From: a virus
Direction: 5' to 3' (one strand)
DNA length: 64,000 bases
Virus record (IMG/VR): IMGVR_UViG_3300021088_000008
Coordinates: 9,219-73,218 of that record
The position numbers and the translations under genes were made by a program. Under the pieces are notes generated by a model, which saw only the letters and a program-made list of their open reading frames with translations, did not search any database and was not told where the DNA came from. Below, piece after piece: positions 22,510 through 50,471 of this stretch; the first letter of the stretch is position 1; each line of letters starts with the position of its first letter.

Positions 22510-23196
22510 GTGAACCTGCATGGTCTGGTCGGTCCCTACGTCGGTTCGGTCAACCCTCTGATCCCTGTCACAGTCCAGATCAGCACCGGGCCCGGCCCGC
22601 AGAACCCAGACGGCAGTCAGGTGCCTTCGTTCGCGACCCCTGGCGCAATCACTGCCTCGGTCTCGGGCGATGTCCTCACCGTCACCAACGTCGCCAGCGG
22701 GGTTCTGCAGCCCGGCCAAACGCTATCCGACGCCGGGGCGCTGCTGCCGACCACCACGATCACGTCTCAGTTGACGGGAACCGCCGGGGGCCTCGGGACG
22801 TACCTCCTCAGCCAGATCCAGCCGGCGCCGATCGCCTCGGAGGCGATGACCACCGCGCTCAATCTGATCGGGCAGGTCCAGCCGATCTCAACGCCGGATT
22901 TGAAGCAGCTCGAGGGGATCAATCTCGGCGGCGTCCATTGGAAAATTTACCTGTCCGGCGAGGTCGATGCTATCGTGCGGCCGGAGCGGAAGGGCGGGGA
23001 CCTCGTCACGATCGGATCCGGTCGACATCAGGGAGTCTGGCTTGTGGTTGGAGTCCTGGAGCAGTGGCCGGATTGGTGCGTCGCAGGAATCGTGCTGCAA
23101 AATGACGCTGTTGTTACCGCGCCAGTTGCTCCGTTCTCGCCTTCGCTGGACTTCTCCGACCCGAGAAATTCACAGTTCTTGCCAGGCATCACATGA
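22510..23196 (+). CDS. Head closure protein with an inserted beta module
   Basis: MNLHGLV..VNP, QVQPIS, R.ERKGGDLV and WLVVGVLEQWPDWC. Confidence 0.75.
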   Translation: MNLHGLVGPYVGSVNPLIPVTVQISTGPGPQNPDGSQVPSFATPGAITASVSGDVLTVTNVASGVLQPGQTLSDAGALLPTTTITSQLTGTAGGLGTYLLSQIQPAPIASEAMTTALNLIGQVQPISTPDLKQLEGINLGGVHWKIYLSGEVDAIVRPERKGGDLVTIGSGRHQGVWLVVGVLEQWPDWCVAGIVLQNDAVVTAPVAPFSPSLDFSDPRNSQFLPGIT

Positions 23197-24734
23197 AGAA
23201 CATTCTCGCAAGCCTCGTGCTCCTCATCCTTTCCGCCGTTCCGGTAATGGCGGACTATCTCGCCAAGGATGCCAACGGCAATATCATCACGCTCAAAGCG
23301 GGGGTTCTTGGTGGCAATGTGCTTCCGTGGGTGTCTCCCGTGGATGGGACCGGAACAGCCTACGGGACGGTCAGCAATCCGTTCGCCGTCGCGCCCGGAA
23401 CCGGCGCGTCATTTCCGGTCACCGGAACATTCTGGCAGGCGACGCAGCCAGTTAGCGCGGCATCGCTTCCGCTACCGGCCGGTGCGGCGACGTCAGCCCT
23501 CCAGAGTTCGACCATCACGGCGCTCGGCTCGCCGTTCCAGGCCGGCGGCAACATTGGTAACACCTCATTCGGGATCTCGGGCACGCTCCCCGCATTCGCT
23601 GCAACGCCGACGTTCAACTGCGGGAGCGGATGTTTCCAGGCGACGCAGCCGATATCAGGAACGGTCACTGCGGCGCAGGCGACCGCAGCCAACCTGAATG
23701 CGACCGTGGTGGGGACCGGAACGTTCGCAGTTCAAGCTGCCCAATCAGGAACATGGAACATCGGCAGCATCACGACTCTGCCGGCATTGGTGGCGGGCTC
23801 GGCGATCGTCGGAAAGGTCGGCATCGACCAAACCACGGTCGGCACGACCAACGGCGTATCGCTTGCCCAGATCGGAGCCAACACAATCTCGACTGGCGCG
23901 GGTGCAACGGGCACCGGAACGCAGCGGGTAGGCGTCGCGCAGGACACCACCACCGTCGCCGGGTCGGCGCCGGGTACCGCAGGAACGCCCTCTGCTAACG
24001 TCGTAACGGTGCAGGGCGCTGCGTCGATGACACCGGTGGCGGTTAACGGAGCATCCAGCAATGCGTCATCTGGCGTGGCGACAAGCTCGACGAACGTCCC
24101 GACGGTCGCTTACAACTATGGATTCAATGGATCAACGTGGGACCCGGCCAAGAGCAAAGCCGCGAGCACGCAGGCGGCATTCACGGATACAGCGATAGTC
24201 GCTGATCCCCGACCTAATAGCGCCGCGACGATTTCCGGCACCACGACGAATCCAACGACAGGCGCCTATACGCTGACGGCGACCACGACCGCATACACTG
24301 CGGGACAATTGATCGCAAACAACGGCACCGCAGGTTCGGTTACGAACCCGAGTTTTTCCATTGCCAACTCGGGAGGTGGCGCCGCTATTCCGAGACTGCG
24401 ATTGATCAGCAACGACACGACATCGACGGCATGGGCTGCGCAGACGGTCCAGGTCGATCTTTGGTCCGCCGCTCCGACATGGACAAATGGCGATAGAGGC
24501 GCATGGTTGCCGCTGACGGGTAGTGCTTCGCATCTCGGGTCATTCACTTGCGTTTTCCCATCTGCCGAATGGGGTGACGGCATCGCGACCGAATGCTCAC
24601 CCGTAGTGGGGAACTTCTCTCTTTCGGCTCTCGCGTCAGGATCAACAATATACGCGTCGTATAAGGCCGTCACCGGATCTGGTGTCACCGGAGCGTCCAA
24701 GACCTTCACACTGATTGCAGAGGAAATGAACTGA
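23193..24734 (+). CDS. Fibre-like protein with a Sec-type signal peptide
   Basis: MKNILASLVLLILSAVPVMA|D. Repeats FWQATQPVS / FQATQPIS, VGKVGIDQTT. Thr/Gly/Ala-rich. Confidence 0.7.
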   Translation: MKNILASLVLLILSAVPVMADYLAKDANGNIITLKAGVLGGNVLPWVSPVDGTGTAYGTVSNPFAVAPGTGASFPVTGTFWQATQPVSAASLPLPAGAATSALQSSTITALGSPFQAGGNIGNTSFGISGTLPAFAATPTFNCGSGCFQATQPISGTVTAAQATAANLNATVVGTGTFAVQAAQSGTWNIGSITTLPALVAGSAIVGKVGIDQTTVGTTNGVSLAQIGANTISTGAGATGTGTQRVGVAQDTTTVAGSAPGTAGTPSANVVTVQGAASMTPVAVNGASSNASSGVATSSTNVPTVAYNYGFNGSTWDPAKSKAASTQAAFTDTAIVADPRPNSAATISGTTTNPTTGAYTLTATTTAYTAGQLIANNGTAGSVTNPSFSIANSGGGAAIPRLRLISNDTTSTAWAAQTVQVDLWSAAPTWTNGDRGAWLPLTGSASHLGSFTCVFPSAEWGDGIATECSPVVGNFSLSALASGSTIYASYKAVTGSGVTGASKTFTLIAEEMN

Positions 24735-25792
24735 TGCGACGACGATCTTTCATCGCAGCAGCACTGGCAGCATCCGCGCTGCTGGCGCTTGGGTGGCTGG
24801 GGTCGGCGGATGCGGTCTCTGGAAGCCGGTTGCTTCTGCTTGGGGGACCCCCTGGATGGGTCCAAAAAGGTGCGATCATTGATGAGGTTTTTACAACTTC
24901 TCAGTATTACCCGCGCCCGATCGCGCAGGAACTAGTCGATACCAGAGCTTCATCCAAATTTCTTACGCCAACGAACGGAGTGCTTGTTTCTATCGGGAAT
25001 AACGTGCTGCCACTTAGCAGCGCTGGTTTGTTGGTTGAACCGTCCGCGACAAATGGCGCGCTTCAGTCTCAAAACTTCTCTGCGACGTGGGCAGGAGCTC
25101 ACAGCGGGATCGCCACGGCAAATGCCACAACGGCACCGGATGGAACTACGACAGCAAGCAAGATTGCTTATGGGTCGGCGACGAACCAAAACTATCTGTT
25201 TGCGCAAGCTCAGACTTACGTCACGTCATCGGGGTATATCGTTTATACTTACGCCAAAGCAGCGGACTACAATTTTCTGGCGCTTGTGACGTTCGACGGA
25301 ACCGACAATTTCGGTGTCATCTATAATTTGAGCACTGGAGCAGTTGTCGGAAATATCACCAACGCGCCGGTAGGAACGATAACGGCAAGCGGCTCGTCCG
25401 CATTAGCAAATGGTTGGTATCTTTGCTGGTTCGCATTCACCGCGACAAATACCGGCTCGGCGTCGTTCGGCATCCAGGCAGGGCCGCAGCAAAGCAACAG
25501 CCAGAATATCAATACCCCCGGCGCTGGGGCGACCGGGAGTGGAATCTATGTTTGGGGTTATCAGAGCATGCTCGGATCGCTGCCATCGTCATACACTCCA
25601 ACCACAACATCGACCGCTCCGCGCGCTGCCGACTCAATCGTCATTCAAAGAACTGGTATCGGGCGCATCGTTTTCACATTCGACAATGGGAGCACGCAGA
25701 CGATCTCTGGCATCAACCCTGCGGCTCAATACACTATCCCGACAAACCTGAACCGCGCGCTGATCACCCGAATAACGGGATATGCATCGTGA
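24734..25792 (+). CDS. Spike/fibre-like protein with a Tat-like signal
   Basis: MRRRSFIAAALAASALLALG. GLLVEPSATN, APDGTTTASKI and PSSYTPTT..RAAD, as seen in phage spike/fibre domains. Confidence 0.7.
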   Translation: MRRRSFIAAALAASALLALGWLGSADAVSGSRLLLLGGPPGWVQKGAIIDEVFTTSQYYPRPIAQELVDTRASSKFLTPTNGVLVSIGNNVLPLSSAGLLVEPSATNGALQSQNFSATWAGAHSGIATANATTAPDGTTTASKIAYGSATNQNYLFAQAQTYVTSSGYIVYTYAKAADYNFLALVTFDGTDNFGVIYNLSTGAVVGNITNAPVGTITASGSSALANGWYLCWFAFTATNTGSASFGIQAGPQQSNSQNINTPGAGATGSGIYVWGYQSMLGSLPSSYTPTTTSTAPRAADSIVIQRTGIGRIVFTFDNGSTQTISGINPAAQYTIPTNLNRALITRITGYAS

Positions 25793-27237
25793 AGTGGGGC
25801 CTAGCTTTATTTATGCTCGCCTTCGCCCAGGACGCGAGCGCTCAATCGATGTCGCTGACGTTTCCGACATCGCTCACGATGGCATCAGGCCTACCGCTGC
25901 CATTCACGGGCGTCACCATATCCGATCCGAATCCAAATGCGACAACGGACACGGTCACGATTTTAATGAGCGGATCGGCTGGAGGAACACTGAGCGGTCC
26001 TGGCTTGACGGGGTCTAACCCCTATACGCTGATCGACGCGCCGGCCAATATCACGGCGGATCTGCAGGCCCTGACATACACCCCTGCGGTCGTTGGAAAC
26101 ACAAATGCGATTTTCGATATCTCGGTGTTTAGCACAGCAATCGCCACCTTGCAGCCTTCGGCGGCAGAGGTACAGATTCAAAATATCAATCTGACCGATG
26201 AGGTACCGTACCCAGCGCCGTCCTGTACGTTTGTCTCGAGAAACTTCAAGGGCGTCAATATTTCCGGGGCGGAAAACACTTACCCGGCAACGTCGCAATT
26301 CAATTATATCTACCCTGCGAATGTGGAACTGGATTACTTCGCATCGAAGGGATTCGGGCTGATTCGCATGCCGGTCCAAATCCGCCGCGTGCAAGAGTTT
26401 TCCTATGGCGACCTTGATCCCATCGGGCGCACCGACGAACCGGCTGTATCCGGGTCGGTGCCGGGAACGCAAACCAACCTATTGGCGATGAAGTCAGTTT
26501 TTGATCACGCATGTGCCGACAACCTCTATGTCGTGATTGATTCGCACGATTACGGTTACATTCAGGATACGAACACCAATACGTCTAGACCGATCGGATC
26601 CGATCCCGAGGCAACAGCGCAGTTCAAGGATTGGTGGATTCGGGTATCGACCAAATTTAGCAATTACCCAAACTTGATCTTTGGGATTATGAATGAACCA
26701 TATGCGCAGACGCCCGGACAGTGGCAAGTGGGCGCGGTCGCGGCCATCAACGGCATTGCGCAGGTAACGACTTCGCGGATGGTGTTCATCCCAGGTACAT
26801 CGTACACAGGTGGACATTCCTGGGTTTCGAGCGGAAACGCTGCAGCATGGGCTGGCTACGTTCCGCCAGCAGGGATGCAAATCGCGTTCGAGATGCACGA
26901 ATATCTTGATAGCGATTTTTCCGGATCGCATGCGGTTTGCGCTGGCAATGGTTCGGCGCCGATGACAGCAGCAACCGCATGGGCACAAGCGAATGGGTTT
27001 AAGATTTGGATCGGAGAAATCGGCTGGTCGCAAGATCCGAGCTGTCCTCCTGACGCCGCAAATCTGATGGGCTATTTCACGGCAAACGAACCCACATATC
27101 TCGGGTGGGCTTACTGGGTTGGCGGCAGTCAGGCGTTCTACGGCTCGTATATGTACACCGTGCAGCCGACCGGCTATCCAACCGGACCGTTTGCGGATAA
27201 GCCGCAGATGTCGGTCCTCATTGGAAATCTGAATTGA
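25789..27237 (+). CDS. GH5 glycoside hydrolase (endoglucanase-like) with signal peptide and N-terminal beta domain
   Basis: GVNISGAE, IDSHDY, acid/base MNEP, HEYLDSDFSG, nucleophile IGEIG, GWAYW. GTG start overlaps the upstream stop. Signal ends ASA|Q. Confidence 0.88.
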   Translation: MKWGLALFMLAFAQDASAQSMSLTFPTSLTMASGLPLPFTGVTISDPNPNATTDTVTILMSGSAGGTLSGPGLTGSNPYTLIDAPANITADLQALTYTPAVVGNTNAIFDISVFSTAIATLQPSAAEVQIQNINLTDEVPYPAPSCTFVSRNFKGVNISGAENTYPATSQFNYIYPANVELDYFASKGFGLIRMPVQIRRVQEFSYGDLDPIGRTDEPAVSGSVPGTQTNLLAMKSVFDHACADNLYVVIDSHDYGYIQDTNTNTSRPIGSDPEATAQFKDWWIRVSTKFSNYPNLIFGIMNEPYAQTPGQWQVGAVAAINGIAQVTTSRMVFIPGTSYTGGHSWVSSGNAAAWAGYVPPAGMQIAFEMHEYLDSDFSGSHAVCAGNGSAPMTAATAWAQANGFKIWIGEIGWSQDPSCPPDAANLMGYFTANEPTYLGWAYWVGGSQAFYGSYMYTVQPTGYPTGPFADKPQMSVLIGNLN

Positions 27238-27251
27238 TCGGAAATTGAAAC

Positions 27252-27626
27252 ATGACGAAATCAAGTTTGAAAACATGGCTCGGTATCGCCTACGTCGTGA
27301 TCGGGCTGATCATGTTTGCCTCAGCAGCTTTTTCTCAGGGCATCACCGATCAGCCCATGGTTCCGCTCGGATATTGCCAACTTACCGCGCCGGCCGCCGC
27401 AACCAAACTATCGACTTGCGCTGGCGGTATTCCAGCCAACGCAAGGATGGTTTACATCTACGTGGAGACTGGCGCGGTTCGATATCGCGATGATGGCGTT
27501 GCGCCGACAGCCGCGATTGGCATGCCGATAGCTGTTGGTGGGACGCTATTTTACACGGGGACATTGAGCAGCTTTCAGGTTATCCAGCAGGCGGCATCAG
27601 TGGTAAATATTCTGTTTTATCGATGA
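27252..27626 (+). CDS. Small exported beta protein
   Basis: Signal-like N-terminus ending AFS|Q, VRYRDDGVAPTAAIGMP. Confidence 0.7.
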   Translation: MTKSSLKTWLGIAYVVIGLIMFASAAFSQGITDQPMVPLGYCQLTAPAAATKLSTCAGGIPANARMVYIYVETGAVRYRDDGVAPTAAIGMPIAVGGTLFYTGTLSSFQVIQQAASVVNILFYR

Positions 27627-28372
27627 CGCCGTCTCCGACCCAGTCAAACGTCTTCGCGCAACTCCGAAGCTTCCTGCTGGCGGTGCTACCTTCGGGTGTC
27701 GTGGTCGTTCCAGCGCAGCAGAACCGGGTGCCTGAGCCTGCCGGGGTCGACTTCGTCGTAATGACGCAGATCCGACAGGAGCGGCTTGAGACTAACGTCG
27801 ATGGCTACGCCGACGGCGTGTTCACAGGTTCGATCGCTGGCCCGACGATGACGATAACCGCGGTGAACCCCAAATTTCCGAACGCGCAGATCGGGGTCGG
27901 CAGCACGATCTTCGGCGTCGGGATCGCGGCGGGGACCTCGGTGAGCGCGATCCTGACCGGAACCGGCCAGATCGGGACCTACACCGTGACGCCGTCCCAG
28001 ACCGTTGGGCCTCTGACCATCTCGACCGGCACAAAGCAAATCATGATGCCGACCAAGCATACGATCCAGATCGACTTCCACAGTGCTGATTTGAGTTCGG
28101 CCGGGGATATGGCGGCGACCGTGAGCGCACTATTCCGGGATGAATTCGCCGTGCTCCAATTCCAGGGACAATCGCCCTATTACGGCGTCGCGCCGCTTTA
28201 CGCCGACGATCCACGCCAGATCCCTTGGACCAACGATCAGCAACAGATCGAATGGCGCTGGACCTTGGACGCTTTGCTCCAATCGAACATCGTGATACAG
28301 GTTCCTCAGCAGTTCACAGATTCCGTGGTTCTCACGCCGGTAAGCGTCGATGCAAAATATCCCCTGCCTTAG
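27623..28372 (+). CDS. Tail terminator / neck protein with an inserted beta module
   Basis: QQNRVPEP, RLETN, IQIDFH and PLYADDPRQ..QQIEWRW. Upstream of the sheath. Confidence 0.75.
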   Translation: MTPSPTQSNVFAQLRSFLLAVLPSGVVVVPAQQNRVPEPAGVDFVVMTQIRQERLETNVDGYADGVFTGSIAGPTMTITAVNPKFPNAQIGVGSTIFGVGIAAGTSVSAILTGTGQIGTYTVTPSQTVGPLTISTGTKQIMMPTKHTIQIDFHSADLSSAGDMAATVSALFRDEFAVLQFQGQSPYYGVAPLYADDPRQIPWTNDQQQIEWRWTLDALLQSNIVIQVPQQFTDSVVLTPVSVDAKYPLP

Positions 28373-28384
28373 GAGGACACCGCT

Positions 28385-30382
28385 TTGACGACGATCCCAG
28401 CCTCGTTGTTTGTAAACGTCGTCCCGTCCGTCCTCTCGACCGTCGGCCAGGCCGTCAGTCTCAACGGCCTGATCCTGACTGGCAGCAACCGGGTCCCATT
28501 GGGGGCCGTCTATAGCTTCGCGAGCGCCACGGCGGTCGCCGCGTTCTTCGGGTCGTCCTCCCAGGAAGCCCTGATGGCCGGCGGCGGCAGCGGCAAGGGG
28601 GCGGGCTATTTCGGCGGATTCGCCAACTCCAATTCGCTGCCGGGAGCGCTGCTGTTCGCCCAATACAATGCCGCCGCCGTCGCGGCGTATCTGTGGGGTG
28701 GGAATGCCGGTGCGGCGCTGACGCTGGCGCAACTGCAGGCCCTGAACGGGTCCCTCAATATCGTCATGGACGGCTACGCGCACGCGATCGCGTCAATCAG
28801 CCTTTCCTCGGCAAACAGCTTCTCCGCCGCAGCGGCCGCGATCCAGGCGGCCTTCACCGACCCCACCGAGGCCTCATTTACCGCGGCGATCGGGGCCACC
28901 TTCACCGCGACGCAGGCCGGAACGAACATGACGACGTCGGCCGTCACCGGGCTGATTTCGATCGGCGACACCATTACCGGGACCGGTGTCGCGGCGAACA
29001 CAACGATCATTTCCCAGACCTCCGGGACCACGGGCGGCGCTGGCGTCTACGTCACCAGCGTGAGCGGCACCGCCTCCGGTGCGGCGTGCATCGGCTCGAG
29101 CACTGTCCTCAATGTCACGGTGGAATCGGTTGTCTCCCTGGCGGTCGGTCAGACCGTGGTCGGGGCCGGGGTCACGGGCGCGCCGACGATCACCGCGCAG
29201 ATCACCGGGCCCGCCGGTGGCGTGGGGACTTATCGCCTCAGCGGCGCACAACAGCAGGTCGCCAGCGAGGCCATGACGGCGATTGCGACGGCTCCCCTGG
29301 TCACCTTTGATTCGCAATCCGGCGCGTTTGTGATCACCTCGGGGATCACCGGCGCGGCCTCGACCTCGGCTTTCGCCACCGGGACGCTGGCGGCCTCGCT
29401 GCTGCTGACCTCGGCGACCGGCGCGTTTCTGTCGCAGGGCGCTGCGGCGGTGACGCCAGCGAGCGCCATGAACGCCGTGGTTGCGATCACCACGAACTGG
29501 GCGACCTATACGACCACGGTTGATCCGGATGGCGGCGTCGGCAACACGCTCAAGCAAGCCTTTGCCGCTTGGAAAAACTCGTTCCCGAATCGCTACATGT
29601 ACGTGGCTGGCGATACCGATGTGCTGGCCCGGTCGAACCCGCCGCAGGCTGAAACCCTGGGGCAGGTATTGGCCGGGAACGGGGATTCCGGGACGTTCCC
29701 GATCTCCGAATTAACCGATCTCAATCAAGCCGCTTTCGTGATGGGAATCGCGGCATCGATCAATTTCAACCAGAAAAACGGCCGCACCGATTTTGCCTTC
29801 CGCAGCCAGACAGGACTCGTTTCCGATGTCGTCTCCGGACAGACTGCGATCAACATCGGGGGTAATCCGCAGGTGCTCGGCGACCGCGGCAACGGGTACA
29901 ATTATTACGGCGCGGTCGGCTCCGGAAATGCCAATTTCACGTGGCTGCAGCGTGGGATCGTCACCGGACAATTTCTCTATGCCGACAGTTACGTCAATCA
30001 GATCTGGCTCAACAGCAACTTGCAACTCGCGCTGCTGAATCTCCAAAACAACTTGCTATCGATCCCGTTCAACACAATCGGCGCTGCATTAATCGAGGCC
30101 GCGCTAGCGTCTCCGATCCAGGCTGGATTGGATTTCACTGCCTTCGCACCCGGCACCATTTCGCCGGCGCAGATCGCCGCAGTGAATTCGCAGGCCGGGG
30201 CCAACGCCGGCAACCCCAGCCTCAACATCACCGATACGCTGCAGGCCCAGGGCTACTACCTCCAGGTCCTGCAGCAGGCGACCAACATTCGGCTGAACCG
30301 CGGACCATGGGCGATCACATTCTGGTACCTTGATAGGGGCTCAGCGCAAAGCATCAGCCTGTCCAGCGTCGCCATCCAATGA
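28385..30382 (+). CDS. Tail sheath protein (DUF3383 family) with two inserted beta modules
   Basis: TIPASLFVNVVPSVL, ASINFNQKNGR..FAFRSQ, GYNYYG, DSYVNQIWLN, WYLDRGS. AGGAGG RBS with TTG start. Confidence 0.88.
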   Translation: MTTIPASLFVNVVPSVLSTVGQAVSLNGLILTGSNRVPLGAVYSFASATAVAAFFGSSSQEALMAGGGSGKGAGYFGGFANSNSLPGALLFAQYNAAAVAAYLWGGNAGAALTLAQLQALNGSLNIVMDGYAHAIASISLSSANSFSAAAAAIQAAFTDPTEASFTAAIGATFTATQAGTNMTTSAVTGLISIGDTITGTGVAANTTIISQTSGTTGGAGVYVTSVSGTASGAACIGSSTVLNVTVESVVSLAVGQTVVGAGVTGAPTITAQITGPAGGVGTYRLSGAQQQVASEAMTAIATAPLVTFDSQSGAFVITSGITGAASTSAFATGTLAASLLLTSATGAFLSQGAAAVTPASAMNAVVAITTNWATYTTTVDPDGGVGNTLKQAFAAWKNSFPNRYMYVAGDTDVLARSNPPQAETLGQVLAGNGDSGTFPISELTDLNQAAFVMGIAASINFNQKNGRTDFAFRSQTGLVSDVVSGQTAINIGGNPQVLGDRGNGYNYYGAVGSGNANFTWLQRGIVTGQFLYADSYVNQIWLNSNLQLALLNLQNNLLSIPFNTIGAALIEAALASPIQAGLDFTAFAPGTISPAQIAAVNSQAGANAGNPSLNITDTLQAQGYYLQVLQQATNIRLNRGPWAITFWYLDRGSAQSISLSSVAIQ

Positions 30383-30394
30383 GGAGGATCTGAA

Positions 30395-30823
30395 ATGGGC
30401 GTTATCACCGCATCCGATGTCGTGCTGACGCTGACGCAGGCGCTGCTCTATCCGACGCCACAGCAGCTTCAGGGATTTGCGGCGGATGACGTCTTCGACA
30501 TTCCCGCGATCAAGTCGATCGAGTCGACGATGGGCGTCGATGGCGTCCTATCGGCCGGCTTCGTTTTCGTTGAGATTCCTTGGGATATCGTGCTGCAGGC
30601 GGATTCGGCCTCGAACGCGATCTTCGATCGGATCTGGGGTCAGCAGCAGGCGACAAAATCGACCTATCAATTGTTCGGGTCAGTGAAAATTCCGGGCACG
30701 TCGACGAAGATCGCACTGACCGCGGGGTTCTTGAGCTCCTACAAGGCGCCGTCCGCCAAGAAGGTACTCCAGCCCCGGCGCTACCAGATGATCTTCCAGA
30801 GCATGGCGGTTGCGCCGGCATGA
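30395..30823 (+). CDS. Tail tube protein
   Basis: LQGFAADD, MGVDGVLSAGFV and LQADS. Follows the sheath. Confidence 0.82.
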   Translation: MGVITASDVVLTLTQALLYPTPQQLQGFAADDVFDIPAIKSIESTMGVDGVLSAGFVFVEIPWDIVLQADSASNAIFDRIWGQQQATKSTYQLFGSVKIPGTSTKIALTAGFLSSYKAPSAKKVLQPRRYQMIFQSMAVAPA

Positions 30824-33132: not shown

Positions 33133-33133
33133 C

Positions 33134-34074: not shown

Positions 34075-34077
34075 CAC

Positions 34078-35100: not shown

Positions 35101-35852
35101 GCGACACCAGCTTCGGTTATGGTCACGAAACGCCGAATGATTCGGGATCCGATTATCGATCAATGCTGTTCGTCGCCCGGCAGGTTGTGGTTAAGATATC
35201 GACCATGGCACCGGTCAAGGTGCTGGCGGTCACCGCAGGCGCGGGAACGCCGCCCGCGGCCGGCACGGTGGACGTCCAACCCCTGATCAGCCAGATTGAC
35301 GGCAATGGCTACGGGACGCCCCACGGGACGGTGCATGGTATCCCCTGGTCGCGGGTCCAGGGCGGCAAGAATGCCATCATCTGCGACCCGGTGGTGGGGG
35401 ACATCGGGTTTATCGTCGCAGCCAGCCGCGATATGTCCAAGGTCAAGAACACCAAGGCCGCGGCGCTGCCGGGCTCGCGGCGCCGGTACAACCTCGCGGA
35501 TAGCGTCTATGTGGGCGCCATCCTCAATCCGGCCCCGACCTGCTACATCCAGTTCACGGCCGACGGTCATTTCAAGTTCGTCGATGTCGACGGAAATATG
35601 GTAGTCAGTTCATCGACAGGATGGTCAATCACCCCAAAGTCGGGCCAGCCGGTGACCATCAACGGAGCGCTCGTGGTGACGAACAACCTTCAGCTCGGCG
35701 GGACGATCACAAGCGAGGCGGGCGGAACGTATTTCGGCAACATCGTTCTCACCGGTACGGTCACAGCGGCCGACGTCATTGCCGGTGGCAAGAGCGGCGC
35801 AACTCATGAGCACTCCGATCCGCAGGGCGGCACCACGGGGCCGCCGATATGA
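35097..35852 (+). CDS. Baseplate central spike
   Basis: VDVQPL, QGGKNAIICDPVVGDIG, PGSRRRY, and C-terminal HEH metal-binding apex ending GGTTGPP. Confidence 0.85.
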   Translation: MSDTSFGYGHETPNDSGSDYRSMLFVARQVVVKISTMAPVKVLAVTAGAGTPPAAGTVDVQPLISQIDGNGYGTPHGTVHGIPWSRVQGGKNAIICDPVVGDIGFIVAASRDMSKVKNTKAAALPGSRRRYNLADSVYVGAILNPAPTCYIQFTADGHFKFVDVDGNMVVSSSTGWSITPKSGQPVTINGALVVTNNLQLGGTITSEAGGTYFGNIVLTGTVTAADVIAGGKSGATHEHSDPQGGTTGPPI

Positions 35853-36232
35853 GCACTACTTTGCTTCTTGACAGAACCCTGTGGGATTTGACCCTCGATA
35901 GTTCGGGGAACATCGCGGTCGCCAGCGAGCCATACTCCCTTGCGCAAGATGCCGCCTCGGCGATCAAGACGTTCATCGGGGAATGCTATTTCGATACGAC
36001 GATCGGCATCGATTATCTGGGCATCATCTTCGGCGGCAACCCTTCGTTGGCGCAGATCAAGGGGTTGTTCGTGGGCGCTGCGCTGACGGTGCCAGATGTC
36101 GGTTCGGCGGTATGCTTCATTTCATCGGTGAGCGGACGATCGATTTCAGGCCAGATCCAGGTCGTGAGCAAATCGACCGGTCAGACCTCGTTCGCCAGCT
36201 TCGCCGTCGTGAACCCGCAAGGAATCGGATGA
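35849..36232 (+). CDS. Baseplate wedge / sheath initiator protein
   Basis: [31 protein letters not shown]. Confidence 0.75.
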
Positions 36233-36233
36233 G

Positions 36234-38099
36234 ATGGCCGGAACGTCGGTTCCTCAGATCCAATGGACGTCGGCCGGGTTTCTGGCGCCATCGGGCCCGT
36301 CCGTGCTGGCAGGCGTGCAACTCGACATCAGCGGCGCGTTTGGGAGTGCCCTCAGCTACGGGCTGACGACACCACAGGGTCAGCTGGCGCAGTCATGGGG
36401 CGCGATCGTTGTCAATTCGTATTCCACCGCGGTCTATTACGCTCAACAGTTCGACCCGGCCTATGCGTCCGGCAGGTTTCAGGATGCGCTGGGGCGGCTG
36501 ATCCCCGGCTTCGCCCGGCAGCCTTCGGAGCCGACCGCACTCCAGATCATCTGCAACGGCGCGCAGGACGTTCAGATTCCGATCGGCGCCTTGGTCCAGG
36601 ACATCAACCTGAACCTCTATCAGTGCGTCCAGGCCGGCACGATCCCGGTCGGAGGCGCGATTACGCTGTCGTTTGCCGCGGTGGTGCCGGGCCCGCTGGC
36701 GGTCCCTGCCACGGTGACGCTGACGCAACTCATCCCCGGATGGGATTCTGCCACCGTGCTATCGGGCGCGATCGGGCGCAATGTCGAGAGTCGCGCGGCA
36801 TTTGAAACGCGGCGGCAGGACAGCGTCGCTGGCAACAGCTTCGGCCCGGTCGGCGCCATCATCGGCGCCGTCGCCGAGGTGCCGGGGGTGCTCGATTATT
36901 ACGGTGTTGCCAATCCCACGAACGGCACCGTGGTCATCAACGGGGTCTCCATCGCCGCCTATTCGACGTACATCTGCGTTGCCGGCGGCGCGCCGGCGGC
37001 CGTGGCGCAGGCGATTTGGTCCAAAAAGAGCCCGGGCTCGCCGATGGTGGGCAACACCACGGTGACGGTTTACGACTCCAACCCGCTGTATTCCGCGCCG
37101 GTTCCGTACCAGATCACCTATGAGATCCCGCCAGCGCTTCAGGTGCTGTTCAAGGTTGTGGTCGCTAACGGCCCGCTGGTCCCGTCGACATTCCAGACCC
37201 AGATCCAGAGCGCGATCCTCGCGGCGTTCTCGGGCCAATCCCTGCAGGCCAATTTCACCGGGTCGGTGGCGGGTACGACGTTGACGGTTTCCGCGGTGAA
37301 TTCTGGAACGCTGTCGATCGGCCAGACGATCGATGACCTCACCGGCAACCTGGTCGCCAATACGACGATCACCGGGTTCGGCACCGGGACCGGAGGAATC
37401 GGCACCTATTCTGTCAGCGTAGCGCAGACCGTCACCAGCGAGCCGATGACATCGGCGACCACCACCACCGGGACGACGATCCCGCGAGCACGGATCAATT
37501 CTCAGCTCTATGCGATCCAATATGTTCCCGCGGTGGCGGCATTGGGGACATGGGCGCAGGTCGCTGCGATCGGCATCGGATCAGCCAATGAATCCGATGC
37601 GGTGGTGGTTGGGAATATTTCCGGGAACAATCTGACGGTCACCGCGGTGACGTCAGGAACGTTGGTCACAAACGACGCGCTGTTCGACGTGCTGAATCTC
37701 ACACTGAATGCCACCTATATCACCGGCCAGACCAGCGGTACCCCGGGTGGAGTCGGCGTCTATACGGTCAATCAACCCCAGACGCTATTTGGCGCGACGT
37801 TCACGGGCACCGGATCAGGTTTTAACTTGACCGTTACGGCTGTGACCGGCGTGATTGTAAACGGCAATGTTCTGACCGGTACCGGCGTTCCGGCCAACAC
37901 CATCATCGTCAACCAAACCAGCGGCACGCCCGGCGGTGCTGGCGTTTACGTGACGAGCAACACCACGACGTCGAGCGGTGCGGCGCTCACCACCAACGGA
38001 GTCTTCACTGCGGCGTCGGCCGATCAGATCGTGATCCAGGTCAACGCGAATCAGGTGCCGCAACTCACCGCGGCGAACATTTTGGTTTCGCACACATGA
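36234..38099 (+). CDS. Baseplate J-like protein with three inserted beta modules
   Basis: [36 protein letters not shown] and [11 protein letters not shown]. Confidence 0.85.
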
Positions 38100-38773
38100 C
38101 GGACACAGGCGCGCCTTATCCGAAGTACGCCCCCGGCTTCACGCCCGGCTCGAATGCTATCGGGACTTTCGCCATAGGCGTGAGCCCATTGGGGATGATT
38201 CCGCCGTTCGATCCGTGGGACACCGTGATGTCCCAATATGCGAACTCACCAATCATCACCGGCCTGATCACATCGTTCAACGCTGCGATGGACCTGACGC
38301 AGTTCTACGAGCAGTTCCTCGAGAACGAAGTGGATATCACCACCGCCGTCGGCTATGGGCTCGATGTGCTAGGTCGGATCGTCGGTGTCACCCGCGTGCT
38401 GAAATTCTCCGGCTTGACGCCGAGCTTTGGGTTCAACGAGGCGAACAGTTGGACCGGATTCAACCAGGGCAGCTTCGCCAGCGGCTCATCGTCGGTGTCG
38501 AACTTCATCCTGCAGGATTCCGACTTCCGGCGGCTCATCCTGGCCAAAGCTGCAGGAAATATCTCCGACGGGTCAATCCAATCGACGAACAGCATCCTGC
38601 TGCAGCTTTTCCCCGGCCGCGGTACTGCCTACATCGCCGACAACCAGAATATGACGGCCACCTATACGTTCAGCTTTCCCCTGACACCGGTCGACCTCGC
38701 CATCCTGCAGACCCCTGGTGTCTTGCCCGATCCGGCTGGCGTCGGTATTAACATCACAGCCCCGCCGTCCTGA
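38096..38773 (+). CDS. Baseplate wedge protein (DUF2612 family)
   Basis: [24 protein letters not shown] and [11 protein letters not shown]. Confidence 0.85.
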
Positions 38774-38790
38774 TGGGAGAAAATTACCGC

Positions 38791-40005
38791 ATGAAGAACC
38801 GAATCATAGCGGCCCTTGTCGCGGCTCTGGCGCTGTTCACTGCGAGCGGCGCGGGCGCCATCCAACAGGCCAATGTCCCGCCAAAGTTCGCGCTGACCTG
38901 GGGCGCGTTTGCGGCTACCCCGTACATCCGATCGATTCCGCAGCCATCGCAGATCGGCATCACGAATTGTTCGGCGTCGCTCACGGACGGGTTTCCGCCG
39001 CTAACCTTCGTGCCTGCCGCAGCCGGCGGCTGCGCGCCGTTCGGGCAGGATTTCAACGGTATTCTTCGGCAGATCACGCAATGGGATCAGTGGACCTCCG
39101 CAGGCGGACCCACCTTCTATGATGCAACGTTCGCGACGGGTGCGGCGAATGGATACCCGAAAGGCGCTATTCTCCAATCCACGATCGTTCCGGGCGATTT
39201 CTGGTTATCGACCGCCGACAACAACACCTCAAATCCGGACACCGGCGGCGCGAATTGGGTGCCGTTGCCGAGCACATATCAGACCGGATCGATCGCATGG
39301 ACGTGGACGACTGTGCCCTCTGGATGGGTTAACCTGAACGCCTCGACTACGATAGGTAATGCGTCGTCCGGCGCGACAGTGGCCAACTCGACGACGCAAC
39401 TTCTGTACGTTCTGCTGTGGAACAATTGTTCCAACACGCAATGCCCGGTCACCGGAGGGCGCGGCGCGAATGCTGCGGCGGATTATGCCGCGAACAAGCA
39501 AATCTCTGTGTTCTCCATGGCCGGCTCCATGCAGATGGGGAACGACCAGGGCACAGGGGTTCTGAATAGCGTCCCGGTCATTTTCGGCGGCGGCCCGAAC
39601 TTCAATCTATCATTGATCGGCGAGGTCTTTCACACCAACACTGTCGGCGAACTCCCGGCGCACACGCACAACATCAACATCACGAGCAGCATCGAGAGTG
39701 CTGCCCACACACACACCGGATCAGGTACGACAGGAAACGATAGTCCGGATCATTTCCATTCGGTCGAGGGTTTCGGCGGCGGCGGTGCGAATGTCGCTGG
39801 CGGCGGCAGCTTCAACAATTCGAGCGTCAACACGTCAGGCGCCAATACGCGTCATCAGCACGCCTATTCGTTCACGACGAGCACCGAGAGCGCCAACCAC
39901 ACGCATGTCGTCAACGGCGCCACCGATGGCGGTAATGGACTTTTCAACACGCCGGCCAATAACACGCCTCGAGCCATGATCGGCATATGGATTATCAAGC
40001 TATGA
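38791..40005 (+). CDS. Tail fibre protein with a Sec-type signal peptide
   Basis: MKNRIIAALVAALALFTASGAGA|I. Fibre N-domain ASLTDGFPPLT..GQDFNGIL..GYPKGA, collar-like region, HxH repeats (HTH, HTH, HFH, HQH, HTH). Confidence 0.82.
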   Translation: MKNRIIAALVAALALFTASGAGAIQQANVPPKFALTWGAFAATPYIRSIPQPSQIGITNCSASLTDGFPPLTFVPAAAGGCAPFGQDFNGILRQITQWDQWTSAGGPTFYDATFATGAANGYPKGAILQSTIVPGDFWLSTADNNTSNPDTGGANWVPLPSTYQTGSIAWTWTTVPSGWVNLNASTTIGNASSGATVANSTTQLLYVLLWNNCSNTQCPVTGGRGANAAADYAANKQISVFSMAGSMQMGNDQGTGVLNSVPVIFGGGPNFNLSLIGEVFHTNTVGELPAHTHNINITSSIESAAHTHTGSGTTGNDSPDHFHSVEGFGGGGANVAGGGSFNNSSVNTSGANTRHQHAYSFTTSTESANHTHVVNGATDGGNGLFNTPANNTPRAMIGIWIIKL

Positions 40006-40883
40006 AACTCGCATCCCTGATCTTCGCCACCGTCATCATGTCGATTTTTTCGACTGGATTGGAGGCGGAACCCGCAAAGATTCTGAAATCCCAAGTGGGC
40101 CCGACGTTTCAGGCGGACGTCGCGGCCTATGCCAAGGAAATGATGGATTGGAAGGCTCACATGGCTGCGGTCGCTGCAGACAAGGCTGCCGGCGTGCCGA
40201 AGGAAAAGGCCCATGCGCCCTTCCCGCCGCCAATAGCTCCTGCCGACGTCGCCGCGGCGGTCGACGATACGGGCACACCGAACTATGTCATCGTCGACGA
40301 TGGCCCGACACCGGATCAAGTTCTTGCGGCGAAGAAACAGGCGCTGATCAGCGAGATCCAGGAGGCCGAGGTAGCGCAGATCGAGAAAGTCATCCCGGCG
40401 GCGAAGCTTCGCGCCGCCGAGTTTCGAGCCGCCGACATACAGGTGGCGGATGCCGCGGCAGTTGAGCAATCGCTGCGCGCGGTTGACAATGAGCGGAACA
40501 AGTTGGCCGCTCTCAATAGCCAGCAAGAGAAAATTGAAATGAAGTTGGCGGCCGAGCAGCCGGGACTGATCGGAGCGGCCATGCAATCTATGACCGGGCT
40601 CGGCGCGGTGATTGCCTCTGATCTGGCGGCAGCAAAAGCGCTTGATCAGCCGATCGCCGATCAGGCCGCGGTGGTGAAGCAGGCCGAGGCCGCCTACGCC
40701 GACCGGCCAGCCCTAATGGCGAAGACCAGATCACCCGCCGATCACGCCTTCATGCTGGCGCGAGAGGCCAACAGGAAGACGGTCGAATCGATTCACCGAT
40801 GGGCGGCGCAGGCGATGTCCGATGTTGCCGATCTGACCACGGCGAATGTCGATGCGTGGAAACTGCCACCGTTCCAGAACTGA
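40002..40883 (+). CDS. Helical fibre-associated / assembly protein with signal peptide
   Basis: MKLASLIFATVIMSIFSTGLEA|E. Directly downstream of the fibre gene. Confidence 0.6.
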   Translation: MKLASLIFATVIMSIFSTGLEAEPAKILKSQVGPTFQADVAAYAKEMMDWKAHMAAVAADKAAGVPKEKAHAPFPPPIAPADVAAAVDDTGTPNYVIVDDGPTPDQVLAAKKQALISEIQEAEVAQIEKVIPAAKLRAAEFRAADIQVADAAAVEQSLRAVDNERNKLAALNSQQEKIEMKLAAEQPGLIGAAMQSMTGLGAVIASDLAAAKALDQPIADQAAVVKQAEAAYADRPALMAKTRSPADHAFMLAREANRKTVESIHRWAAQAMSDVADLTTANVDAWKLPPFQN

Positions 40884-40892
40884 GGGGAATCG

Positions 40893-43103
40893 ATGCGCCA
40901 TTTCAAAGCGGCCCTCTTCGCGTTGCTGGCGCTCCTGCCGAGCGCCGCGCTGGCGCAAAGTCTGCCGCCATGGCCGATCACGACATATGGATATGTTGCG
41001 AGCCCGGCGCAGTGGGGCGTGCTCGCCACCATGAAGCAAGACTACCTCGGCGCACCTCCGGTCTTGACGTCCGGCGGAATCATGACCGGCGAGTTGACCA
41101 CGGCGCCCGCGACTGCATCGAGGTCGGGATTCAATTGTCCTCCTGGCGTGGCGCCGACGTCACCTGTCAACGGTGATATTTGGTGTACCAATGCCGGTGT
41201 GTTCTCTCAAGTTAACGGATCGACGATCGGTCCGCTGATAGGTGGCGGATCATCAACATTCACGGGAACGTCTCCCATTGTTCCGACGTTTCCAGGCGGA
41301 GGCGTCGTTAATTACGCATTCAATTTCTCGGTTTCAAATACGTTCCTGGCGAATCAAACCGGGCAGGGCGCGACCACGACTCAGCCAGGATGGTATGCAC
41401 AGATCTCCGGAGACACATTCGCTCGTGCGCGCATCGGTCCCAATTCGGCTGATGTTGCGGCAGTAAGCTTCGGACCGGGCAATGCCGCGCGAGACACCCA
41501 CATTGAGAGAGCGGCGCCAGCTACGTTGCGCCTTGGATCCACCGATGCAGCGGCTCCGATCGCCCAAACGCTTATCGTGCAGAACGTCATCGCTGGAACG
41601 TCAAATACGGCTGGAACAAATCTAACGATTAATGGGTCACAGGGGACTGGAACCGGTGGCGGCGGCTCCATTATCTTTCAGGTTGCCCCGTCCGGAAGCA
41701 CTGGGACCGCACAGAATGCACTGTCTCCGGCCCTGACTCTGAACAGTTCTAAGTTGGCAACATTCGGTGGTCACGTCTCAATTGAAGGAGTTACGTCCGC
41801 CGGGGCCACCGGCACCGGAAATTTGGTGTTTGGATCGTTACCGACGATATCAACGCCGACTATCGCAGGCGGCGCGCTATCTGGCACATTCTCAGGAACG
41901 CCAACATTCTCTGGCGCGAATTTCCTAACCCTGTCAAATCTTGCGCAATCGTCGGCCGGCGCCCAATTCCTCGGTGTTTCCGGAGCATCTACCGCTAACT
42001 ATGCGCCATTCACGCTGGCTAGCCTCGCCAATTTGGCTTCTCCTAGCCCGACGCTTGATCTGATCCCGATCACCGACCATACGACCGGAACCATAAAAAA
42101 CGTGACGCCAGCCGCGATCGCAGGATCGGTGGTTTCCGGTGTCGCGACCCTGAACAGCCAGACCGGGAACCTCGTCGGATGGACGCCGCCGCAGGGGCGC
42201 CTCAGTCTCAGCACCGCAGCAGTCATGACCGCGAGCGTTGCCGGCGCTACGGCTATCAACTATGTGGCTTACACCGGCCACAACGTTCCGATCTACAACG
42301 GAACTGCCGTCGTGCAGGCCCAGATCTGCGCAGCGAATACTATCGGGAATTGCTTGCTATCCGTGACGCTCGGGAGCAACTGGCTAGCCAGCACGTTCTA
42401 TGATTGGCTGATCGCATGGAACAGTGGAACGCCAACACTGTGCAGCGTCGCATGGACCAATTCGACGACGCGGGCGACGGCGCTCACCCCGATAGATGGC
42501 CTGAACACCAATGCGTCGTCATTCACATGCGCCACCGGCAACAGCACAAGCATCACCGTTCCAGCAAACCAGGGAACTTACGTCGGGACGTGCGAAACTG
42601 GATTGGCCGGACAGTTTAATCACATCTATGGCGGCACGGCTGCCGGCGGCACGGCGGCCTTCATAGGGTGCTGGAATGCCTTCAACCGGATCCAGCAGCG
42701 AACAATCGTCAGCGATACAACGGCATCATGGACCTATGCCGTCGCACTCACGTGGCGCGCCGCAAACGCCGGGCTGCCGGCCCACGTACAGGGAACATTC
42801 GTGAGAGGCCTCGCAGAGGATAGCCTTGTGGGAACCTACTATGGGTTCTCGCAGCCGGGCGCCGGATCGGCATCTGCCGTCGGCGTTGGATTGGATTCCA
42901 CAACGACGCCATGCGGGATAACGATGCCGGCCACACAAGCTGCCGTCAATCAGGCCGTAACAGCGAACTGCGCTTCGATTCCAGGGATTGGCGCTCATGT
43001 CATGGCCGCCCTCGAATGGAACTTCAATACGACTGCTGGTACGTTCTACGGACTTCCGAATGCTGGCGGTCAAACCGGACTTGAAATGGTCTTCTCATAC
43101 TGA
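40893..43103 (+). CDS. Long fibre-like protein with signal peptide
   Basis: MRHFKAALFALLALLPSAALA|Q. KQDYLG, PTSPVNGDIW, TGTGNLVF and PQGRLSL..GTYVGT..WNAFNR. Confidence 0.75.
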   Translation: MRHFKAALFALLALLPSAALAQSLPPWPITTYGYVASPAQWGVLATMKQDYLGAPPVLTSGGIMTGELTTAPATASRSGFNCPPGVAPTSPVNGDIWCTNAGVFSQVNGSTIGPLIGGGSSTFTGTSPIVPTFPGGGVVNYAFNFSVSNTFLANQTGQGATTTQPGWYAQISGDTFARARIGPNSADVAAVSFGPGNAARDTHIERAAPATLRLGSTDAAAPIAQTLIVQNVIAGTSNTAGTNLTINGSQGTGTGGGGSIIFQVAPSGSTGTAQNALSPALTLNSSKLATFGGHVSIEGVTSAGATGTGNLVFGSLPTISTPTIAGGALSGTFSGTPTFSGANFLTLSNLAQSSAGAQFLGVSGASTANYAPFTLASLANLASPSPTLDLIPITDHTTGTIKNVTPAAIAGSVVSGVATLNSQTGNLVGWTPPQGRLSLSTAAVMTASVAGATAINYVAYTGHNVPIYNGTAVVQAQICAANTIGNCLLSVTLGSNWLASTFYDWLIAWNSGTPTLCSVAWTNSTTRATALTPIDGLNTNASSFTCATGNSTSITVPANQGTYVGTCETGLAGQFNHIYGGTAAGGTAAFIGCWNAFNRIQQRTIVSDTTASWTYAVALTWRAANAGLPAHVQGTFVRGLAEDSLVGTYYGFSQPGAGSASAVGVGLDSTTTPCGITMPATQAAVNQAVTANCASIPGIGAHVMAALEWNFNTTAGTFYGLPNAGGQTGLEMVFSY

Positions 43104-43114
43104 GGTAAGATTTC

Positions 43115-44050
43115 ATGCTATATGCTCGGATCATCGTTCTTCTATTTCTCGCCTTCATCATCAGCCCGGCACTAGCGCAGCGCGGTTCATCATCGCCCGA
43201 TCCTAACCAATTGAATACGAACTTTCCCGTTAGCATCGGATGTACGATCAATCCAAATGTCAATGCCGTAACGCTGCAAGCCAGCCAGATTCCAAATCCG
43301 GCCAACCATTATCTTGTTGCGATCGTCGACGGGCAGTCCAACGGCACCAACATCATCCCCACGACCTACACGCCAACGAACGCGTCTGCTATCCTGCAGA
43401 TGAACATCGGTGATGGAGGTGTCTATTCGATTTCGGACCCGGTTCTTGGGACATGCCTCAACGCGGCTGGTTCTGGTTGGAGTATGCTGCAGCTTTTTGA
43501 CGCCTTGATCACGGCGGGTAAATTCGACCACGTCCTCGTTGAGCCTATCAACGTCGATGGCACGGCGGTTGCCGACCACGCGAGCGGATTTCTTCAAGGC
43601 AGGTTGGCTACGGCAATCAATCGTCTCGCCGCGAAGGGCTGGGTTGCCGGAACCAACATCACAGTGATCGTGATCTGGATGCAGGGCGAGAGTGACAATC
43701 TAGCGGGAACCACTCAGGCAAATTACACGAGCACATTGAACTCTCTTATCGCGCAGAGCCGAGCCGCCGGGTTTGCTGGGCCATGGTTTGTTCCGGAAGA
43801 AACTTGGGATAACGGTGCGGCATCGACCGCCGTGCAGCTTGCACAGACGAGTGTATCACCAAGCGGCGTGATCAACACTTCCGCGAGCGTCTATCCGGGC
43901 CCCAACCTTGACGCTCTGGTTGGATCGATATGCACAGGGTCGGCGGCATGTCGACAGGCCGATAATACGCACTTCACGACCGCAGCACGTGCTAATGTCA
44001 CGTCGGTATGGCAGACCGCACTTCACGCCGCATTGCCATCCATTTTTTAG
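43115..44050 (+). CDS. SGNH/SASA-type carbohydrate esterase with signal peptide
   Basis: GQSN, WMQGESD and DNTHF motifs. Signal ends ALA|Q. Confidence 0.82.
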   Translation: MLYARIIVLLFLAFIISPALAQRGSSSPDPNQLNTNFPVSIGCTINPNVNAVTLQASQIPNPANHYLVAIVDGQSNGTNIIPTTYTPTNASAILQMNIGDGGVYSISDPVLGTCLNAAGSGWSMLQLFDALITAGKFDHVLVEPINVDGTAVADHASGFLQGRLATAINRLAAKGWVAGTNITVIVIWMQGESDNLAGTTQANYTSTLNSLIAQSRAAGFAGPWFVPEETWDNGAASTAVQLAQTSVSPSGVINTSASVYPGPNLDALVGSICTGSAACRQADNTHFTTAARANVTSVWQTALHAALPSIF

Positions 44051-50433: not shown

Positions 50434-50471
50434 TGGACGTTCCTTTAGTTGGCTTACTGGATTCTATGGGT

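Follow-up and report, generated by a model that had tools for sequence, protein, structure and literature searches.

Putative export signals on tail-fibre and other host-contact proteins of an uncultured myophage: a possible periplasmic step in virion maturation

Tailed-phage assembly is, in the textbook view, entirely cytoplasmic, and the folding of receptor-binding proteins is assumed to happen under reducing conditions. The late operon of an uncultured, soil-type phage raises the question of whether this holds for every virion part: the gene in its tail-fibre slot (ATG at 38791) and seven other genes between 23193 and 44050 begin with what look like signal peptides. The window, that is the whole stretch of DNA analysed here, is 64 kb long and comprises bases 9219-73218 of one virus record of 73,218 bp (IMGVR_UViG_3300021088_000008). 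Positions below are those of the window; genes are named by their first position and lie on the + strand unless stated otherwise. An earlier note on this DNA, made from the sequence alone, had proposed that receptor-binding parts are exported, oxidised by the host Dsb system and joined to particles at lysis, or else act as secreted accessory proteins. Export and disulfide bonding gained comparative support in the present analysis. We consider it somewhat likely, going by sequence comparison, that the host-contact proteins are exported and oxidised in the periplasm, that the appendages among them dock at lysis, and that some of the enzymes perhaps stay free.

An n-h-c leader is present at the N-terminus of all eight named proteins, seven Sec-like and one twin-arginine. 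The translations bear out the signal-like N-termini listed in the earlier note: VMA/D in 23193, RRRSF...ADA/V in 24734, ASA/Q in 25789, AFS/Q in 27252, AGA/I in 38791, LEA/E in 40002 and ALA/Q in both 40893 and 43115, the slash marking the predicted cut. Leaders were called by a home-made, rule-based detector that asks for a basic n-region, for at least 12 consecutive uncharged residues that include a 9-residue hydrophobic core, and for a cut site of the AXA type; it was paired with a simple + strand gene caller, and sequences were also read by eye. All seven Sec-type genes satisfy these rules, with small residues at -3 and -1, and GGAG or GAGG stands 11-15 nt before the leader starts of 24734, 38791, 40893 and 43115. 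Across the window the detector flagged 10 of 73 called + strand open reading frames (ORFs), and 23193, which the caller dropped in that run, was flagged separately. Nine of the ten, plus 23193, fall within 23193-46079, and the tenth (11012) resembles a membrane protein. Applied to 1278 core tail genes upstream of the fibre in 142 related loci, the detector picked out 26 (2%). The clustering of leaders in 23193-46079 is far from chance.

The leader genes are packed into the late operon. The starts at 23193, 24734, 25789, 27623 and 40002 share 1-4 nt with the stop of the gene before them, and the other junctions measure 9-14 nt. Promoter-like sites numbered 1 and 3 (3.2 and 4.6 expected from shuffled sequence) and terminator-like sites 8 and 1 (8.3 and 9.4 expected); none of either kind lay within the intergenic gaps of the leader cassettes. 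Independently transcribed moron-type units of the lambda lom/bor type were rejected on the grounds of these tight or overlapping junctions and the lack of any excess of promoter or terminator sites.

Pfam and PHROG matches of the window proteins identify a myophage with a tail of the Bcep781/OP2/E217 type. PHROG recognizes, on the head side, a giant protein that contains the portal, a head morphogenesis protein, a NUDIX-protease fusion and the major head protein, as well as a baseplate wedge subunit; Pfam recognizes a DUF3383 sheath, an E217_Gp32-type tube, an E217_GP41-type hub and a DUF2612 protein, and a tail terminator is also encoded. Searching with sheath and fibre by tblastn, we found no close cultured relative. 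The nearest cultured phages are Burkholderia phiE131/vB_E177, Bcep781, Xanthomonas OP2, and Acinetobacter and Pseudomonas myophages, at 33-50% identity. Uncultured relatives are present in IMG/VR, some near-identical and others more distant.

The tail fibre (38773..40005) consists of a leader, an N-terminal baseplate-anchor domain and a distal part with HxH repeats, and has four cysteines (66, 87, 219 and 224, counted from 38773). Its assignment to the fibre slot in the earlier note is upheld. The gene directly follows the leaderless DUF2612 baseplate protein (38096..38773; Pfam PF11041, 8e-48), which precedes the fibre in this tail type and of which 110 homologs were found upstream of the fibre in the fetched loci; the same gene order is seen in vB_E177. 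The tail-fibre profile phrog_12796 aligns with fibre residues 32-178 (2e-28), beginning at residue 32, which corresponds to profile position 3. Two starts are possible for the gene, an ATG at 38773 that overlaps the DUF2612 stop and the ATG at 38791, which has the GGAG motif. From the latter the leader segment spans 23 codons (38791..38859) to the predicted cut AGA/I. An AlphaFold 2 model of the fibre (mean predicted local distance difference test score, pLDDT, 69) shows the leader as a helix and is confident for residues 100-290. A Foldseek search of the PDB with this model gave no match at E<=1e-3; its top weak rows were the cyanophage A-1(L) tail fibre, Acinetobacter phage tailspikes and the Pa193 baseplate-fibre complex. 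In a hidden Markov model (HMM) profile search the fibre matched the N-terminus of the Belisarius tailspike (E 1e-3).

Comparison with relatives places the leader in front of an otherwise complete fibre. By tblastn, 134 cultured-phage records match the fibre, those of the Bcep781, OP2, Obolenskvirus and phiE131 type at E 2e-21 to 3e-25 and 40-50% identity, and all 25 matches listed begin at query residue 30-45. The annotated fibre genes of vB_E177 (Burkholderia) and phiAO1 (Acetobacter) begin exactly where the match begins, so that the window fibre has 29 extra residues (23 from 38791). No cultured relative was found with a leader on its fibre. The earlier note had named a true start downstream of the hydrophobic segment as a finding that would speak against it. 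Such a start is ruled out for the fibre, because there is no ATG, GTG or TTG near the mature N-terminus, whose first codon is ATC, and the leader cannot be removed in this way. Database searching gave 725 fibre homologs; among the best 120 plus the query, 84 have an N-terminal extension of 11-31 residues and 37 have none. When the DNA upstream of the conserved domain was read in frame in the 142 fetched loci, a fibre leader was found in 37 (32 by script, and L002, L003, L053, L062 and L072 by eye), and in 105 the protein starts at the conserved N-terminus. In 25 of 34 distinct fibre leaders the script put AXA exactly six residues before a conserved PxKF motif, just where leaderless homologs have their Met; in the remaining nine the script's regular expression mislocated the motif. 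Ala occupies -1 in 29 of the 34 and -3 in 25. The invariant columns of the N-terminal domain are common to leader-bearing and leaderless fibres.

The two genes that follow the fibre behave in the same way. The fibre partner (40002..40883; 293 aa, leader LEA/E, no Cys) always stands directly after the fibre. It was found in 16 related loci, and its leader status equals that of the fibre in all of them: four partners carry a leader (L002, L003, L004 and L006), all next to leader-bearing fibres, and the other twelve begin at the mature N-terminus and accompany leaderless fibres. The next gene, P2 (40893..43103), encodes a protein like a second fibre or tailspike, with leader ALA/Q, a conserved N-domain of ~120 aa, a variable C-terminal part and 10 Cys. 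P2 is present in 65 related loci, with a leader in 51 (50 by script, L084 by eye). The 14 that begin at the conserved N-terminus include prophages of Mesorhizobium and Shinella genomes, a Rhizobium metagenome-assembled genome and uncultured virus contigs; prophages of cultured Rhizobium, Bradyrhizobium and Labrys strains hold P2-type genes with the leader. Bradyrhizobium oropedii Pear76 (L083) has it on fibre and P2 alike, and Rhizobium freirei PRF 81 (L092), Bradyrhizobium sp. LjRoot220 (L085) and Labrys sp. La1 (L106) have it on P2. The C-terminal parts of 59 P2 proteins fall into 32 clusters, and the one encoded in the window has a match in the tail spike of the Pseudanabaena phage Pam5. 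When 1.84 billion cluster representatives were searched exhaustively with P2, 7603 matched at E<=0.001. No N-domain relative of P2 was found among cultured phages. Searches of Pfam, PHROG, NCBIfam and PDB gave no match for 40002, and none for P2 except two PDB rows (E 0.027 and 0.78); Protein Atlas look-ups of 40002 and 23193 returned nothing informative.

Counting the window, fibre and P2 both carry a leader in 25 loci and both lack one in 14; P2 alone carries it in 27 and the fibre alone in none (Fisher p 5e-4, uncorrected for kinship among the loci). The three genes downstream of the fibre have leaders in 37 of 86 cases where the fibre has one, compared with 38 of 263 where it does not. P2 is thus exported, judged by its leader, in more lineages than the fibre, the fibre leader never occurs without a P2 leader, and the partner follows the fibre. 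This nested pattern fits a rule by which everything distal to an exported part is also exported. Taken together, the alignments indicate that the leaders of fibre, partner and P2 are N-terminal additions to families of virion appendages, with a predicted cut that falls where leaderless homologs begin. As a separate observation, the central region of P2 (residues ~160-310) recurs, as 3-5 matched stretches per protein, in five leaderless proteins of 689-1204 aa with few Cys (P0279, P0281, P0324, P0326 and P0337), and this region may be a widespread fibre-shaft module.

The cysteine content of these proteins tracks their leaders. Our recount reproduced the even numbers reported earlier for the Sec-type proteins (4, 4, 2, 4, 0, 10 and 4), the single Cys of the Tat-like one and the odd numbers of core proteins (capsid 1, sheath 1, baseplate wedge 3). 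The earlier note had also suggested asking whether Cys pairs co-occur with signal peptides across homologs, and they do so in three protein families and two independent samples. In the fibre, 30 of 37 leader-bearing loci and none of the 105 leaderless ones have the Cys66/Cys87 pair; before reassignment by eye, the script gave 27 with and 5 without the pair among leader-bearing loci and 3 with and 107 without among leaderless ones. Among the best 120 database homologs plus the query, these columns hold Cys in 81 of 84 rows with the extension and 3 of 37 without. The second pair of the tail fibre is Cys and Cys in leader-bearing proteins and Phe and Cys in leaderless ones. Over the whole mature fibre, leader-bearing rows have even, odd and zero counts in 73, 8 and 2 cases and leaderless rows in 11, 23 and 2 (two of 121 rows, with fewer than 300 mature residues, were left out).

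P2 gave the same result with many different C-terminal domains. Among complete, non-identical sequences, the 44 with a leader have 1.27 Cys per 100 aa and divide into 41 even, 2 odd and 1 zero, and the 12 without have 0.22 Cys per 100 aa and divide into 3 even, 5 odd and 4 zero. When one row was kept per C-terminal cluster and leader state, the numbers were 23, 2 and 1 with a leader and 2, 3 and 2 without. The best-populated Cys columns of the P2 N-domain pair up: columns 5 and 26 both hold Cys in 4 sequences, columns 41 and 46 do so in 8, and (126,129), (150,167) and (159,176) are likely pairs. All the paired Cys are in leader-bearing proteins; the leaderless ones hold one lone Cys. Among the best 150 of the 7603 P2 representatives, 99 have a leader (95 even, 4 odd), and the other 51, several of which carry leaders that the rules missed, comprise 22 even, 19 odd and 10 zero. 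The trend extends to all non-redundant called + strand proteins of at least 150 aa in the 142 loci: 120 with a leader gave 92 even, 11 odd and 17 zero, and 1313 without gave 464, 583 and 266. Even counts thus make up 89-96% of leader-bearing proteins versus 44-54% of the rest. We regard this parity, which spans many unrelated C-terminal domains and all locus proteins, as a stronger argument than the Cys66/Cys87 pair.

What the sequence shows directly is that the leaders are there, where exactly they stand with respect to homologs, and how the cysteines are distributed; export into an oxidising compartment with disulfide formation is well supported by these comparisons. In the scheme we propose, the head-tail particle would be made from ordinary cytoplasmic proteins. 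The peripheral host-contact proteins (tail fibre, partner, second fibre or tailspike, head-fibre homolog and several enzymes) would cross the inner membrane, seven via Sec-type leaders and the head-fibre homolog via its twin-arginine leader. Signal peptidase would cut at AXA, where leaderless relatives have their initiator Met, and the mature protein would therefore keep the standard virion-anchor N-terminus. Once the proteins have reached the periplasm, their paired cysteines would be oxidised. Contact between the appendages and particles still lacking fibres would come about only at lysis, as the inner membrane gives way, or in the lysate, and the appendages would dock by their conserved anchor domains. 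Proteins that lack such an anchor (the GH5 and SGNH-like proteins, 23193 and 27252) may stay free and act on envelope polysaccharide. Docking after export, its timing and a role for host Dsb are what we infer from this; for docking we look to the anchor domains kept in the fibre, partner, P2 and head-fibre homolog, and to the matching leader status of partners. Fibre-less T4 particles can take up fibres in vitro, and holin lesions are large; both points would make late docking physically plausible.

Several observations weigh against this scheme. Docking after export meets a problem of dilution and timing. The leaders were called by our own rules and a simple ORF caller, and five fibre loci and one P2 locus were reassigned by eye. 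A quick N-domain tree of the fibre had 126 rows, 17 of the 142 loci being set aside because the alignment stopped before the N-terminus or the sequence was short. On it the leader state changes at least six times and the Cys66/Cys87 pair only twice, with a single independent contrast on supported branches. The sequences are related, and the link between the leader and this pair comes down to one or two events; we claim no repeated co-evolution. Seven leader-bearing fibre loci lack the pair, and P0093, P0097 and P0119 have it without a leader, although in these three the gene call may be cut short. In the fibre model, confidence is low over residues 24-93. The absence of 23193 from near-identical phages and the non-homologous cargo of the head-tail slot in five relatives fit accessory proteins. 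Fibres of the cyanophage Pam3 are described as disulfide-linked to the wedge, and virion disulfides are thus possible without export (PMC9942802). Finally, residues 2-10 of the RcGTA head fibre, a hydrophobic N-terminus, are described as a capsid-attachment peptide (PMC7296036).

The most serious alternative is export without incorporation, in which the proteins leave the cytoplasm and at no time belong to the virion. As free enzymes or receptor-binding proteins, in the periplasm or after release, they might cut or mask envelope polysaccharide, keeping progeny from being trapped on debris, or might block superinfection. We think this unlikely, though well worth weighing. Of the genes between head and tail, the first, 23193 (23193..24734; 513 aa, Sec-type, VMA/D, 4 Cys), overlaps the stop of 22510 by 4 nt and belongs to the variable cargo of the slot between 22510 and the tail terminator. 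It has no match in Pfam, PHROG, NCBIfam or PDB, no N-domain relative in cultured phages and no match in four related virus records, one of which is a phage 97-99% identical to that of the window. The last, 27252 (27252..27626; 124 aa, AFS/Q, 2 Cys), whose stop overlaps the tail-terminator start by 4 nt, likewise found no match in Pfam, PHROG, NCBIfam or PDB. Neither has a recognisable anchor. Leader-bearing proteins occupy the slot in five of five relatives examined, with differing cargo: four such proteins in L148 (including the Tat and GH5 genes), one or two in G002, two in G001 and one in L150. In L148, a leader 85% identical over 27 residues to that of 27252 heads two different mature proteins, of 198 aa (4507-5103) and 130 aa (7612-8004), and this sharing suggests cassette exchange just downstream of the leader.

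Two putative enzymes also lack a recognisable anchor. The first, 25789 (25789..27237; GTG start, ASA/Q, 4 Cys), is a predicted GH5 glycanase with a conserved N-domain of ~130 aa. It matches Pfam PF00150 (2e-37; 129.5 bits, gathering threshold 23.5) and the PDB cellulase 4w7u (1.7e-43), one of 34 PDB cellulases at E<=1e-3. Homologs of ~470-520 aa that share the N-domain have a leader in 18 of 19 cases by script and the 19th (P0214) by eye, among the 40 homologs listed; overall, 34 of 70 were flagged. The second, 43115 (43115..44050; 311 aa, ALA/Q, 4 Cys), is weakly SGNH/SASA esterase-like (PF03629, 23.3 bits, under the 24.8 cut-off), had no PDB match, and has a leader-bearing homolog, 76% identical, in L005. 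A tailspike fold exported outside any virion has a precedent in Pantoea stewartii WceF, a chromosomally encoded, trimeric protein with a Tat leader that is described as cutting exopolysaccharide (PMC7949094).

For the fibre itself and its neighbours, a permanently free state fits less well. The fibre stands in the only fibre slot, after DUF2612, and keeps its anchor domain at 40-60% identity to virion fibres. In the structural region of the window we recognised no leaderless fibre that could arm the virion instead. P2 has the build of a receptor-binding protein, conserved at its N-terminus and variable at its C-terminus. The leader genes are translationally coupled to structural genes. Within the head-tail slot, moreover, 24734 (24734..25792; 1 Cys) is homologous to a virion head fibre. 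Behind its Tat-type leader it matches the whole of the NCBIfam profile NF048003 GTA_spike_fiber (profile positions 1-182 of 182; 107 bits, cut-off 36) and the head spike fibre Rcc01080 of the gene transfer agent (GTA) RcGTA (PDB 6tb9, E 2.3e-18). The twin-arginine pattern RRx[FL][LI] is retained as RRSFI in the window, in L148 and in a slot protein of G001, and as RRELL (P0124), RRELI (P0133), RRGLI (P0123) and RRLFL (P0126). The G001 protein has 709 aa and is unrelated to 24734. Among 87 homologs of 24734, the script found a leader in three and a reading by eye in a few more; most have none. The gene 22510, a PHROG 'head protein', has no match to the solved RcGTA spike base Rcc01079 as far as sequence comparison goes.

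It is quite improbable that the proteins serve in two places, a share that escapes export or starts internally arming particles in the cytoplasm and the exported share acting as free enzyme or decoy. Of 34 distinct leader-bearing fibres, 6 have Met as their first mature residue by script, and others do by eye (examples are L024, L027, L035, L050 and L083); this Met looks like a retained ancestral start. In the window, however, the first mature codons are ATC in the fibre and CAG in P2, with no start codon nearby, and the high, even Cys content argues that the functional form is oxidised. Least probable of all is that the hydrophobic N-termini are not export signals but membrane tethers, virion-attachment peptides such as the hydrophobic repeat by which the RcGTA head fibre plugs into its spike base (PMC7296036), or untranslated sequence before mis-called starts: the basic n-region, the uncharged core of at least nine residues and the AXA site are kept in very diverged homologs, the leaders precede the full conserved N-terminus and do not replace it, the Cys parity follows them, GGAG or GAGG precedes several of the starts, and the fibre has no alternative start.

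Export followed by docking at lysis, the reading that we favour, has partial parallels in known systems. To our knowledge, WceF has no virion adaptor domain. It belongs to an exopolysaccharide operon on a chromosome (PMC7949094), whereas the window genes lie in a phage late operon and keep their anchor domains. Fibres of the Bcep781, OP2, Obolenskvirus and phiE131 type (phrog_12796) share with the window the gene position after DUF2612, a homologous anchor domain, the DUF3383 sheath, the E217_Gp32 tube and the E217_GP41 hub; they begin at the anchor domain, and the window fibre adds a leader of ~23-29 aa and two conserved Cys pairs. As in RcGTA, the full spike-fibre domain of 24734 is encoded next to head genes, but a twin-arginine leader stands in front of it where the RcGTA protein is described as having an attachment peptide (PMC7296036). 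Late phage proteins that use host Sec and wait in the envelope until the holin fires are known in the fOg44 endolysin, SAR endolysins and the T4 antiholin RI (PMC6116005). Those are lysis proteins, whereas the ones considered here are homologs of virion appendages. The MAT fibre proteins of Bdellovibrio are described as combining a signal peptide, a conserved N-domain of ~130 aa and a variable phage-fibre-like part (PMC10769870). P2 has the same build, the likeness being one of architecture alone, but MAT proteins are cellular proteins of a predator. In Pam3, disulfides of fibre and baseplate matter for virion integrity, and the accessible part of that report mentions no export signal (PMC9942802), whereas Cys pairs of the window type track leaders. 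A search of the open-access literature and bioRxiv, which did not cover supplementary proteome tables, found no report of exported virion appendages in tailed phages.

Beyond 43115, an endolysin-like protein with a PG_binding_1 domain and no leader (44060..44914) marks the end of the fibre module. Two further leader-bearing proteins follow, outside the range covered by the earlier note: 45124-45840 (238 aa, no Cys), with homologs in nine loci, and 45837-46079 (80 aa, 4 Cys). Just after the lysis region, the ORF 46095-46937 has an internal Met at 46182 from which a canonical leader (ALA/A) can be read, and it would be one more exported protein; it has no Pfam or NCBIfam match.

Some features of the rest of the window are recorded here in their own right. 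Two fusions were found on the head side, a 1271-aa protein with portal, minor-head and DNA-pilot matches (2739-6554, +) and a NUDIX hydrolase N-domain joined to a head maturation protease (12696-13967, +). Between the major head gene and 18541 lies a 318-aa ORF (17549-18505, +) with 15 Cys in CxxC-like spacing and no Pfam match. In L145, a relative 97-99% identical, no ORF was called at this place and the gap from the capsid gene to the 18541 homolog is ~110 nt; the ORF may be a mobile insertion of the zinc-ribbon or homing-endonuclease type. A module of ~70 aa (phrog_21413 / phrog_38233 'tail fiber protein') recurs in the minor head protein 15368-16333 (residues 227-296), the head protein 22510-23196 (residues 46-105) and the baseplate wedge 36234-38099 (residues 335-409). 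A leader-bearing slot protein of L150 (7375-7968) matches the sheath (28385-30382) at residues 161-234, and 22510 matches presumed sheath proteins of other loci; the module may be a shared surface-decoration domain. On the other strand, 53104-59493 (-) holds an early-region recombination module with an Erf-like annealing protein and a RecE-like exonuclease. No integrase was found among the ten ORFs of 48877-60913 or the structural-region proteins scanned. Relatives of the window phage exist as prophages in Bradyrhizobium and Rhizobium genomes.

Carried over to a large group of uncultured myophages and Rhizobiales-type prophages, the scheme would describe two-compartment virions, with a core made in the cytoplasm and every host-recognition appendage exported by Sec or Tat, trimmed, disulfide-bonded and added once the holin opens the inner membrane. 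We put this wider model forward tentatively, as a serious possibility. If it is true, tailed-phage virion proteins have a maturation step in the secretory pathway. Fibres that mature in the periplasm would give assembly a compartment boundary and a last step gated by lysis, and receptor-binding proteins could draw on disulfides for stability in soil. There would be practical consequences as well: producing such fibres and depolymerases in a foreign host would require periplasmic expression or an oxidising host, and annotation pipelines in which a signal peptide counts against a structural role would put thousands of proteins in the wrong class, P2 by itself accounting for 7603 representatives.

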